Of a stretch of DNA of 64,000 bases, positions 11,330 to 60,907 are shown in pieces (position 1 is the first letter of the stretch; each line of letters opens with the position of its first letter). The notes beneath the pieces were generated by a model. That model worked only from the letters and a program-made list of their open reading frames with translations. It was not told the origin of the DNA and ran no database searches. Source of the DNA: Carcharhinus amblyrhynchos. Its lineage: Eukaryota. The position numbers and the translations under genes are program-made. The stretch covers positions 66,278,001 through 66,342,000 of the forward strand of contig OZ336885.1 of assembly GCA_965287045.1 (NCBI GenBank), in the 5' to 3' direction.

Positions 11330-11344
11330 AACGTCTGAAGGAAA
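11330..11344 (+). CDS. micro-exon 1 (15 nt): (E)RLKE
   Basis: ttcacatttcattacag|aacgtctgaaggaaa|gtaagt; first residue assumes an upstream exon ending in G. Confidence 0.7.
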
Positions 11345-59300: not shown

Positions 59301-60907
59301 GGGTAACAGGGATAGGGGAAAGTCTGATTCATGTATTCAGTCAGAGAAGGAAGCTGCGATTATATTTTCTGATTCCAACTGCATGAACGCAAGCACAAAG
59401 TCTTGGACAAGAAAGAGTTATATATTTTATGGAGGTTTGCATGCGAGATTGAATCATTTCCTCATTTTTTCAAATGGAAGTATTTTCAAACATGTTGTAT
59501 AGCGTTATATCGTTAATGTTTCTCGCTTAATATATTATTTAATATTCGTGCTAAAAGTGATTGGGCAGGCTTTGTTGAATCTATTCAGCAATTGATATCC
59601 AAGGATAGTTAAAAGTTAAACAAAGCTGGGACCTATCAAGCCAGCATATATTCAGGGTTCCGGCTTTGATAGCATTAATACTACCTGGACAATAACACCT
59701 TCACAGTCGCGACCATTTAAAATATGTGCATTTTTTAAACGTTTAATAATTATATGTAGTTGTATTCAAAACGGTGCATGAAGTAAACGCATCCTTACAG
59801 ACCAACAGACATATAATAATCGGGACATTTTAGAACGCAATAAAATCGCTTTCAGAGTTGAATTTACAGCAACTAAAATTTTCCCGCTTATTTCAAGGAA
59901 ATAATGTAAAAATGAGATGTCAGCGAGAACGCGTTGTGCATTTGCCTAAACGAAAATATCCTTTCCGGCAGTAAAATTGCACTGTTGAAATATTCACTGG
60001 GAAAGACAGATTGCGATGCCGAATTTAAGAAAGAAAGGCAAAGTAATGCCCCACTACCCCCTCCCCCGCAACCCCCCCCCCTCCCCCCCGGGCAAATTGT
60101 CACTGCATTCGGTGAACAACCTGATGACGTGAGATCTGGTAGAAGGAGATTTCATTTAAGTAATATATTAATGATTAGAGAGAATTAGGGAACCAGTAAT
60201 GGTTTACTTTGAAAGAATACGCTAGATTCATAATTTAAACGAGTCGTGAATTAATGAGTGGCAATGCAAGAGCTGAAGGTGCTGAGCTAAATGTCAACAG
60301 CAATGCAAGTTGTTCTGCCACCGTGCTAATTTAATCGCATAGTATTTTATGCACCTATGTATGGTTGTGGAAGGCTCCAACTTTTCTTCCATCTGATGGC
60401 TATCCCAGTTTCCCTTTGGTTCTTTTGGTTTTCAATTGGCTTTTGTTCGATAGGTTTCGAATATCAACCCACTGTGCGCGTTATGAAGGCAAGTTCCCTA
60501 CCAATTACCACTCATGATGGGGCGCGAAGTACACATTTGGTGACGGGGCGGGGTCACGCCCATCACAATACAAAACCTGTTTGTAACAAAGCACAGAAAA
60601 GTTACTTTTTCCCTTTATCAAGGAGGACAATGTCATCTAATATTTCATAAACATCATTAGCAGATGCCACAGAAGGTTTCATAGCCATTCGATTTATCCT
60701 AACAGCGTTTAAAGCCACAAAGCCCAAACCATAATTCTGGTGGAGGCTGAACCGATATCTACCATTAAAGCTGAAATAAACGCTGCCAGAGAAGAAGTTA
60801 TTGATTCCTTTAGGAGAAGCAGAGGAGGGAGCTTCATCCAATTACCATTATATGTTTTCATTCTTTTAAAGAAATAGACAACTTGAAATCCCGTCTTGCT
60901 GAATGTG
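11330..60907 (+). CDS. Internal part of an unidentified micro-exon gene encoding a long coiled-coil segment (14 exons, 399 nt, 133 codons; spliced model)
   Basis: 14 AG/GT-bounded exons of 15/27/36 nt, all phase 1-1; the concatenation has no stop and shows a/d hydrophobic heptad periodicity. Predicted from sequence only, no transcript evidence. Confidence 0.8.
12058..12367 (-). mobile_element. HE1-like tRNA-derived SINE with CR1-type tail
   Basis: Core aagcacccggagaaacccacggagacaagggaaaaatgtgtaaactccacacagac shared with copies at 16.8, 24.0 and 31.4 kb. Confidence 0.8.
15077..15112 (+). CDS. micro-exon 2 (36 nt): [12 protein letters not shown]
   Basis: ttattttatattgcag|gatccaacgattgcgaggaaaaactacaagatttag|gtgcaa; donor is weak, but the ending L-Q-D-L matches other 36-nt exons. 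Confidence 0.65.
   Translation, partial: DPTIARKNYKI
15860..19870 (-). mobile_element. Old, internally deleted CR1 LINE (ORF2 C-terminus, endonuclease and probable ORF1 remnants), interrupted by a SINE
   Basis: [82 protein letters not shown]. Confidence 0.75.
16636..16962 (-). mobile_element. HE1-like SINE nested in CR1
   Basis: (aaagaac)n tail, aggcccttcggccca, ggaggaaaccagagcacccggagaaaacccacgc core. Confidence 0.85.
20358..21010. mobile_element. Probable solo LTR (653 bp)
   Basis: Termini tgtta...taaca, flanked on both sides by gaag (4-bp target duplication); appears to split an older repeat whose parts lie at about 20220-20357 and 21015-21090. Confidence 0.65.
21412..21438 (+). CDS. 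micro-exon 3 (27 nt): EKKMKDKET
   Basis: ttttgggatttattag|aaaagaagatgaaagacaaagaaacag|gtagat. Confidence 0.7.
22610..25080 (-). mobile_element. Highly decayed CR1 LINE, interrupted by SINE copies
   Basis: Residual CR1-like text (tcattaatatataatgtgaacagt; gaaagccttccaaatgtctaaataaaccacat; [35 protein letters not shown] resembling the K-S-P-G-P-D-G..P-R-V-L-K-E region). Confidence 0.6.
23761..24150 (-). mobile_element. HE1-like SINE (5' truncated) with (catagaa)n tail, plus a second tail fragment at about 24066-24150
   Basis: catagaa repeats, tacagtgcagaaagaggccc, gggaggaaaccggagcacccggaggaaaccca. Confidence 0.85.
25580..25615 (+). CDS. micro-exon 4 (36 nt): [12 protein letters not shown]
   Basis: ctttatactttttttacag|aactgattaaaattcaaaataatttagaagacttag|gtggga. 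Confidence 0.75.
27049..27075 (+). CDS. micro-exon 5 (27 nt): EEQMKVKVK
   Basis: taatttcctacttaacag|aagaacaaatgaaagtaaaagtaaaag|gtgatt. Confidence 0.72.
27770..27880 (+). mobile_element. Short decayed Penelope-related terminal fragment
   Basis: ttgacgaaggactggactcgaaacgtcag resembles the PLE CTGAnGA..GAAACGTC motif, followed by ctgctaagattttccagcattttct. Confidence 0.4.
28090..28485 (+). mobile_element. Old CR1 3' end
   Basis: atgagaggggatctattgaaggtgtagacgataat (RGDLIEV-type CR1 C-terminus) followed by a 3'UTR-like tail. Confidence 0.55.
30673..30699 (+). CDS. micro-exon 6 (27 nt): EFDDLQQKF
   Basis: ctgcttcttttttttag|aatttgacgacctacagcaaaagttcc|gtaagt. Confidence 0.78.
31345..31688 (+). 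mobile_element. HE1-like SINE
   Basis: gggtttctccgggtgctccggtttcctcccacac-type core, gggccgaagggcctgtt tail; reverse complement of the 16.6 kb copy. Confidence 0.85.
31990..35432 (-). mobile_element. CR1 LINE, about 3.4 kb, with most of ORF2 (EN plus RT), 5' truncated
   Basis: [95 protein letters not shown]-terminus [18 protein letters not shown]. Confidence 0.95.
33368..33649. mobile_element. Non-autonomous Penelope-derived insert with 83-bp inverted arms, nested in CR1
   Basis: 33368-33450 is the reverse complement of 33558-33640 with 1 mismatch; flanked by cctataatt on both sides; homologous to 508-680. Confidence 0.9.
35448..35474 (+). CDS. micro-exon 7 (27 nt): QAVLQQKDS
   Basis: ttcttattcgcttacag|aagctgttttgcaacaaaaggattcag|gtaaat. 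Confidence 0.75.
36464..36499 (+). CDS. micro-exon 8 (36 nt): [12 protein letters not shown]
   Basis: ttttatctgttttgaag|aaataacggacctccaaagaaaatgcgaacaattag|gtgagc. Confidence 0.75.
39359..39498. other. Assembly gap (140 N)
   Basis: Run of n. Confidence 1.
40861..40875 (+). CDS. micro-exon 9 (15 nt): EKENN
   Basis: tttaacttattcacag|aaaaagaaaacaatg|gtaagg. Confidence 0.7.
41462..41763 (+). mobile_element. HE1-like tRNA-derived SINE
   Basis: A-box-like tggcgcagcgcttgg, B-box-like ggtttcgaatccc, body ggattggttatgctaaattgtcc, CR1-like tail. Confidence 0.75.
42224..42250 (+). CDS. micro-exon 10 (27 nt): VLEAKEKLD
   Basis: tttttctcatcatattttag|tactcgaagcaaaggaaaaacttgacg|gtgagg. Confidence 0.72.
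43095..43615 (+). mobile_element. Two short CR1 3'-end fragments
   Basis: 3'UTR motifs ggctaaacggcctgtttccatgct and tgggccgaatggcctgattcagctccaatatcttatggtctta. Confidence 0.6.
43835..45250 (-). mobile_element. Decayed Rex1/Babar (L2-related) LINE fragment
   Basis: [37 protein letters not shown](PQG-type) RT region; 3' [11 protein letters not shown]. Confidence 0.65.
46490..47190 (-). mobile_element. Second Rex1/Babar-type LINE fragment
   Basis: [34 protein letters not shown]; nucleotide similarity to 44050-44700. Confidence 0.7.
47490..48710 (-). mobile_element. Old CR1 LINE 3' fragment
   Basis: acataggaacagaagtagg tail; [21 protein letters not shown]; gcccagcactgattc motif. Confidence 0.7.
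48939..48965 (+). CDS. micro-exon 11 (27 nt): DEETREKDS
   Basis: cttgcattttatcatcag|atgaggaaacgcgagaaaaagactcag|gtaatg. Confidence 0.75.
50303..50338 (+). CDS. micro-exon 12 (36 nt): [12 protein letters not shown]
   Basis: tctttgttattcatcatag|aaatagcagctttaaataaggaactgcaagatgcag|gtgaga. Confidence 0.8.
51352..52203 (+). repeat. Dispersed direct repeat of about 69 bp (51352-51420 and 52135-52203)
   Basis: actttcaa-n-gaatatagaa-r-atatttacacgtgtgatcgatggacagatgcaattcac-k-attaaaactt occurs twice with 3 differences. Confidence 0.9.
52586..53712 (-). mobile_element. CR1 LINE RT fragment, closely related to the 32-35 kb copy, lacking the 3' tail
   Basis: [96 protein letters not shown]. Confidence 0.95.
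56018..56085. repeat. (CA)n-type microsatellite
   Basis: cagacacacacgcagacacacacgcagacacacacacacacacacac. Confidence 0.95.
56837..56917. other. Long near-perfect inverted repeat (38-bp stem, 5-nt loop)
   Basis: catctccatagtttgcatgcgcatcagtccgtgtttga-ttact-tcaaatacggactgatgcgcatacaaattatggaggtg. Confidence 0.9.
58134..58160 (+). CDS. micro-exon 13 (27 nt): GELFRQKQK
   Basis: tttacttattttaacag|gagaactttttcgacagaagcagaaag|gtaatg. Confidence 0.75.
58658..59155 (+). repeat. Tandem duplication, period 253 bp, 2 copies
   Basis: cgtggttttctaactcatgaagttaaaagacgggtcacaaatattgtttt starts at 58658 and 58911; similarity continues to ...ctcat-y-tgcctgc. Confidence 0.92.
60872..60907 (+). CDS. micro-exon 14 (36 nt): [12 protein letters not shown]
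   Basis: gttttcattcttttaaag|aaatagacaacttgaaatcccgtcttgctgaatgtg|gtaagc. Confidence 0.8.

Follow-up and report, generated by a model that had tools for sequence, protein, structure and literature searches.

In the chicken BG/zipper proteins a long coiled coil is encoded by many small split-codon exons whose heptads span the exon junctions; exon number varies and alternative splicing occurs (PMC4046983, PMC5938342). The butyrophilins (BTN/BTNL) have short heptad exons of phase 1-1, followed by a 27-nucleotide (nt) exon bearing a tryptophan and then by a terminal B30.2 exon. The B30.2-type TRIM proteins (TRIM39, TRIM58, TRIM21 and those that RefSeq calls "A33-like") also have a coiled coil followed by a B30.2 domain; the coils of TRIM proteins are short, being encoded by a small number of larger exons. 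Here we consider a stretch of 64,000 nt from Carcharhinus amblyrhynchos (the window; positions 66,278,001-66,342,000 of contig OZ336885.1, called C16 below), in which 14 short plus-strand segments had been proposed to constitute a coiled-coil gene of 133 amino acids (aa) spread over 50 kb. The segments are almost certainly real exons, but the extent proposed for the gene was wrong: the 14 are an interior slice of about 189 such exons over 900 kb, an array that is probably spliced into a single coiled-coil rod protein ending in a B30.2 domain.

Micro-exons of the window

A scan for open segments bounded by AG and GT recovered all 14 segments with the same ends as before, two of them being 15 nt long, seven 27 nt and five 36 nt. 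When they are joined in phase 1-1 the frame contains no stop (the other two frames have 15 and 7), and the residues at heptad positions a and d that the original prediction had quoted for exons 2-6 are indeed those of the translation. The segments sum to 399 nt, 0.8% of the span, as expected from the earlier figure of less than 1% coding.

The exons alternate between two slots: an H slot, occupied either by a 36-nt exon or by a shorter exon of 27 nt (27b), and then an L slot, occupied either by a second type of 27-nt exon (27a) or by a 15-nt exon, which is a 27a exon less four codons. Together a 36-nt and a 27a exon provide 21 residues, that is, three heptads. On the plus strand of the window, the H slots are exon 2 (15077-15112), exon 4 (25580-25615), exon 8 (36464-36499), exon 12 (50303-50338) and exon 14 (60872-60907), all of 36 nt, with the 27b exons 6 (30673-30699) and 10 (42224-42250). 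The L slots are the 27a exons 3 (21412-21438), 5 (27049-27075), 7 (35448-35474), 11 (48939-48965) and 13 (58134-58160), with the 15-nt exons 1 (11330-11344) and 9 (40861-40875). The weak points are the acceptor of exon 3, with a poor score of -1.3, and the donor of exon 2, with 2.8, both under a general splice-site matrix. Intron 8 contains a 140-nt block of N, and the slot alternation is complete without any exon there.

Each slot has its own residue pattern, as compiled over the whole array. The 36-nt exons are hydrophobic at codons 2, 5, 9 and 12 (the core positions, as in exon 2) in 84, 85, 80 and 43% of cases; the 27a exons are hydrophobic at codon 4 in 87%, with lysine at codon 7 in 40 of 78; and a further class of 21 nt has its core residues at codons 2 and 5. 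The codon split by the junction is Glu or Asp at 142 of the 188 junctions. Relative to the heptad register, a 27b exon appears to drop three residues, giving a putative skip (stutter) at exon 6, and a 15-nt exon four, so that an adjacent pair of the two, as in exons 9 and 10, amounts to a 27+36 pair minus exactly one heptad. Lys makes up 17% of the translated array, Glu 15%, Leu 14% and Cys 2%, with Pro below 1%, and from its periodicity the chains are predicted to associate through the heptad stripe as a coiled coil.

Evidence that the segments are exons

With a crude filter, in-frame candidates are more numerous on the plus than on the minus strand for each size (27 nt, 7 versus 2; 36 nt, 6 versus 1; 15 nt, 5 versus 3). 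Ranking gave a sharper separation. With matrices trained solely on exons outside the window, the five 36-nt exons occupy ranks 1-5 of 201 candidates (25.7-37.3 bits, the next scoring 5.9 and the best of 219 minus-strand candidates 11.0) and five of the 27-nt exons ranks 1-5 of 217. The remaining two 27-nt exons rank first and second of 217 under a second model, whose 11 seeds also lie outside the window and were picked by hand after the window had been inspected. The two 15-nt exons come first and second in 917 kb under a model built from the flanks only (20.9 and 20.6), a thin margin, since the best minus-strand candidate reaches 18.3.

Hydrophobic power peaks at a period of 3.51 when the exons are in their native order, a value attained by 1 of 2000 exon-order shuffles, which bears out the earlier contention that a periodicity running over the junctions would not arise by chance; for the next 26 exons, 0 of 2000 shuffles attain the observed power. 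Slot alternation, furthermore, holds at 78 of the 83 junctions in the 3' part of the array (5000 shuffles: mean 42, maximum 58) and continues with hardly a break from a point 113 kb upstream of the window as far as the B30.2 exon described below. Finally, when the splice-site and stop filters were turned off, 104 of 108 high-scoring sites proved to be catalogued intact exons, the other four being three sites with a broken splice site and one offset of a known exon; the scores in this check are in-sample and so favour known exons.

A 900-kb array ending in a B30.2 exon

The same type of exon continues beyond both ends of the window, all of which (positions 1-64000) lies inside the array. Our catalogue comprises 189 phase 1-1 exons on the plus strand between C16:65,533,063 and 66,435,491 (~900 kb), namely 11 of 21 nt, 98 of 27, 75 of 36 and 5 of 15, for a total of 5,652 nt and with a median intron of 3.2 kb; it is incomplete, and its thresholds admit one or two false exons per class. 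The window accounts for about 7% of it. At the 5' end are the 11 catalogued 21-nt exons (C16:65,533,063-65,658,206); the exon class switches at ~65.67 Mb to the 36/27/15-nt array upstream of the window (C16:65,679,173-66,274,819), which is continued downstream of it (C16:66,342,524-66,435,491) and ends in a 27-nt Trp-bearing exon. Within the array, a tandem duplication at C16:65,953,369-65,987,384 holds an exon cassette present in triplicate, with decay among its copies, and another at C16:66,057,458-66,062,665 has five consecutive 36-nt exons spaced ~1-1.7 kb apart.

The Trp exon is followed on the same strand, 97 kb past the last exon of the window, by a terminal B30.2/PRY-SPRY exon (C16:66,436,397-66,436,911; 170 codons plus a stop), the sole B30.2 exon in the 1.36 Mb searched. 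Pfam recognises its SPRY domain at E 1.7e-12 (47.9 bits, the curated cut-off being 26.3), which places it in the B30.2/PRY-SPRY superfamily; it matches BTN3A1/3A3 at about E 1e-15, and TRIM58 is its best PDB match (E 9e-17). The frame is intact in two related organisms, where there are 5 synonymous changes in 111 sites versus 5 replacements in 399, a ratio of ~0.28. In one of these relatives (X2) the exon has 7 changes versus 22.2 expected from the introns (P 1.7e-4). To judge from the layout of the exons, those of the window would be linked to this one, and it is quite likely that one transcript reaches it.

Comparison with butyrophilin, BG and TRIM genes

Had the locus been a butyrophilin or BG gene, immunoglobulin (Ig) and transmembrane (TM) exons would be expected ahead of the heptad exons. 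The searches for Ig and for RING/B-box covered the DNA upstream of the window gene and of three paralogs (see below). A conventional butyrophilin at C46:1,550,001-1,586,000, with IgV, IgC and TM exons, short exons and the 27-nt Trp exon, served as a control. An IgV profile found the control exon at E 1.6e-36; over 1.36 Mb, the 5' intervals of two paralogs and 180 kb at a paralog on C9, it had no match with an E below 0.8. An IgC control escaped this profile, trained as it was on IgV, and for IgC we therefore turned to Pfam: the butyrophilin IgC family (IgC2, PF22705) had 35 matches among 87 candidates and none on C16, and Pfam, which scored the control exon, found no Ig in 101 upstream open reading frames. 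The matches of the butyrophilin IgC family are concentrated on C46, C53 and C9. A RING/B-box profile built from 49 RING-bearing proteins gave E 1.3 at best upstream of the window gene and its paralogs, and in a Pfam scan none of five RefSeq relatives had a RING or a B-box.

Nor did scans for hydrophobic exons give a convincing signal or TM exon. Signal-like exons with an ATG are common by chance (1.18 Mb has 77 sense and 65 antisense); in several, the reading frame runs through the pyrimidine tract of an acceptor. A comparison of four paralog 5' intervals at the DNA and peptide levels revealed no first exon; the one element common to the paralog intervals is a dispersed old repeat. An old retrovirus-like element with a Pfam env fragment lies at C16:65,446,000-65,454,800, 61,076,000-61,081,200 and 63,685,600-63,688,300. 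In the 1.66 Mb searched, copies 58-67% similar were confined to the 5' intervals of the two tandem paralogs examined, yet the element is dispersed genome-wide, so that this is either a co-duplication with the 5' region of the family or chance.

In a midpoint-rooted tree of B30.2 domains, 15 rows of the family to which the window gene belongs are split from 35 TRIM, butyrophilin and other rows by a 100/100 branch, and the family is not nested among the TRIM/BTN domains. The rows were selected by the family's own profile, and the tree leaves out proteins lacking both motifs, those with more than one B30.2, isoforms and seven of the 29 TRIM-like rows.

The window gene thus shares with the butyrophilins its short heptad exons, its Trp exon and its B30.2 end, but differs in having no detected IgV, IgC or TM exon and in the separate long branch of its B30.2 domain. 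The BG genes (the butyrophilin and BG comparison drew on PMC12841164, PMC4046983, PMC8813856 and PMC5938342) have IgV and TM exons, lack B30.2, and have 27-38 repeats in which exons of 21 nt predominate. The window gene, by contrast, has mostly alternating 36- and 27-nt exons in 21-residue units, a B30.2 end and 5-7 times as many exons, with only 11 of 189 being of 21 nt; these have their core residues at codons 2 and 5, whereas in BG they are at codons 4 and 7 (PMC5938342). With the TRIM proteins it has in common a coiled coil followed by B30.2, but no RING or B-box was found for it and its B30.2 branch is separate. As no Ig exon and no convincing TM exon was found, we conclude that this is probably neither a butyrophilin nor a BG gene, and on the features tested membership of the TRIM group fails as well; the tails of butyrophilins and chicken BG are nevertheless the closest designs. 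Among the analogues named in the original prediction, which assigned no orthology, the butyrophilin and BG tails are accordingly the best, and one of the flanking exons it proposed looking for, B30.2, is present.

Paralogs and database relatives

The B30.2 exon has six close paralogs with 38-58% identity, of which C16 carries five and C9 the other; a seventh, also on C9, emerges from the tree, so the family has at least seven paralogs. Micro-exon arrays were found upstream of four. A head-to-head paralog on the minus strand has, in the stretches sampled, 21-nt exons, then 27/36-nt exons and then B30.2. Upstream of the paralog's 21-nt block, at C16:65.34-65.42 Mb on the minus strand, is an extra block of 27/36-nt exons that includes an internal exon of Trp type and is not followed by B30.2; it could belong to a gene of its own or be an extension in the 5' direction. 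In two separate arrays, the 36-nt exons detected furthest 5' (C16:65,418,379 and 61,034,835, minus strand) are alike, being the best of 17,646 pairs, a likeness that suggests a shared start of the arrays.

From a profile search over 1.84 billion proteins, we took the eight best-scoring single-domain relatives as representatives of the family. Six are named in RefSeq and one more shares its cluster with a named protein; they come from Scyliorhinus, Narcine, Leucoraja, Cetorhinus and Callorhinchus and are labelled TRIM-like, A33-like or nuclear-pore anchor-like. Close relatives turned up solely in chondrichthyans (sharks, rays and a chimaera), in agreement with the original suggestion of a micro-exon coiled-coil gene of cartilaginous fish. 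The records XP_042192744.1 (Callorhinchus, "nuclear-pore anchor-like"), XP_038672306.1, XP_069775384.1 and XP_055510696.1, or their cluster mates, lie on the family's B30.2 branch and carry the 12|9-residue unit. They differ from the window gene in being automated models with unrelated names, mostly short; they are of the same family, though not necessarily orthologs of the window gene itself. In four relatives of four genera the 12|9-residue unit and this type of B30.2 are in one chain, one of them being a chimaera model of 1,697 aa. Between RefSeq isoforms the differences are internal blocks of 9 residues, in each of the three species aligned, plus a single block of 6 residues, an indirect sign that such exons are spliced.

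All of these relatives are database gene models, and so is the catshark P0153, which maps in order to nine distinct micro-exons in a paralog on C9 that occupies a compact 100 kb. This mapping produced 13 matches among 4,557 sense candidates versus 2 among 4,720 antisense; besides the nine, three were weak and out of order and one overlapped another. Searches for homologs among long proteins yielded 0 of 518 candidates, two family members in 7,998, and one match in 758. A single-sequence fold of the ray relative P0017 has low confidence (mean predicted local distance difference test score 51), with long helices at 3-47, 57-141 and 152-189 and the B30.2 domain not resolved, and we have not used it as evidence.

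The predicted protein and alternative explanations

If all the exons and the B30.2 exon are joined, they would encode a single protein 2,000 or more residues long. Two chains would wind into a parallel rod of ~280 nm (1,880 residues at the coiled-coil rise of 0.15 nm per residue), presumably with flexure wherever a 27b or 15-nt exon alters the register. Such a rod may oligomerise and space the B30.2 heads, which would bind a partner or ligand. Since the searches yielded no exon for a signal, Ig, TM, RING or B-box, a soluble, intracellular protein is the likeliest product, one that could behave as a TRIM lacking its RING, or as a butyrophilin/BG tail on its own; an innate-immune or cytoskeletal role is the probable one, and we put forward a soluble intracellular scaffold as a plausible but still tentative assignment. 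Since the exons are symmetric, their duplication or skipping could alter the length of the rod without a frameshift; it may have been lengthened in evolution by the duplication of exon pairs and be adjustable by skipping.

Several observations weigh against this interpretation. The catalogue has gaps of up to 29.8 kb and, at one junction where an exon is probably false, a stop. Of the eight family representatives, seven are only 129-451 aa long, so real transcripts may use just part of an array. The first coding exon was not found by hydrophobic-exon or CpG-island scans, which makes an unrecognised N-terminal anchor or signal possible, and for the RING/B-box profile there was no positive control from the genome. 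The cysteines (~2%, mostly at core positions) would also suit an extracellular disulphide-linked rod. In the divergence comparison, which covers the relatives X1 and X2 (X4 did not span the B30.2 exon), the deficit in X1 is not significant (6 changes versus 8.6 expected, P 0.25). Finally, the matches to class I of the major histocompatibility complex (MHC) are all on C9, near two paralogs, and the window gene is on C16; this absence of MHC linkage means that an immune role has no positional support.

The array could instead be several transcription units, or be only partly used, short transcripts joining a few 3' exons to B30.2 and upstream blocks such as the window and the 21-nt block making separate coils without B30.2. 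The shortness of most RefSeq models of the family would fit, as would gaps of 20-30 kb together with the class switch at ~65.67 Mb, and the minus-strand block with its internal Trp exon and no B30.2 after it. We nonetheless regard this as unlikely: the alternation continues through the window to B30.2, the 1,697-aa chimaera model joins a long rod to B30.2, and the short models may be 5'-incomplete.

It is rather improbable that the protein is anchored in the membrane or secreted, either like butyrophilins and BG or as a secreted B30.2 rod, with signal, TM and Ig exons that have diverged or lie far away. The 21-nt heptad exons are at the 5' end of the array, which is where BG tails begin (PMC5938342), the cysteines sit at core positions, and the RefSeq relatives P0151 and P0052 start with hydrophobic stretches. 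On the other hand, the control-validated IgV profile and the IgC family and Pfam scans were all blank upstream, signal-like exons arise by chance or as read-throughs, and the N-termini of P0151 and P0052, as their protein sequences suggest, end in just such a read-through pattern. The N-terminal region of P0052 had no match in the region or the genome with the query used and no usable Atlas match. That the segments are a decaying pseudogene or chance splice-like sites, an idea to which only the three family-like exons with broken splice sites would lend colour, is scarcely credible given the held-out ranking, the periodicity and alternation tests, the 104 intact sites out of 108 and a B30.2 exon that is intact and constrained in relatives.

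Other features of the locus

The introns contain what we take to be decayed LINE-type (long interspersed element) fragments, mostly antisense, at window positions 3440-6794, 32355-33753 and 52588-53704, along with presumed SINE-like (short interspersed element) repeats; an antisense intronic reading frame of 476 codons, ~20-21.5 kb upstream of the window, is presumably gag-like by its sequence. An inverted repeat of 83 nt (99% complementary, with a 107-nt spacer) lies inside a repeat element at window positions 33368-33640, and a 254-nt unit in two tandem copies, high-copy in relatives, at 58650-59155. About 22 kb past the B30.2 exon, on the opposite strand, is a single-exon G-protein-coupled receptor gene of the rhodopsin family (308 codons; L021:7291-8214, minus strand).

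Novelty and significance

We found no description of this family in the literature covered, which excluded supplements and most subscription journals. The earlier surmise that the gene might be undescribed thus stands for the literature but not for the databases, where RefSeq holds the family under other names and only as mislabelled fragments. Conceivably, and we offer this with due reserve, it represents a third architectural class of B30.2 protein, having neither RING/B-box nor Ig/TM, confined to chondrichthyans, tunable in length and older than the shark-chimaera split, which PMC6238376 places at ~420 million years. Such a class would have megabase genes with up to ~190 cassette micro-exons in two complementary slots and rods of ~200 to more than 2,000 residues. 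Their length would be set in whole heptads, through duplication or through the skipping of exons in pairs (36+27 nt, or 15+27 nt), making the rod a length-tunable spacer for a ligand-binding head.

If spliced as we propose, this would be a vertebrate gene with ~190 exons of 15-36 nt over 900 kb, and a new architecture in the B30.2 superfamily, uniting a BG-like exon-built rod with a butyrophilin/TRIM-like head. The family, with its paralogs, spans several megabases that automated annotation fragments, mislabelling members as TRIM or nuclear-pore proteins. The array is also a natural test both of how exon size classes may co-evolve to keep a heptad register and of the splicing of long constitutive runs of micro-exons.

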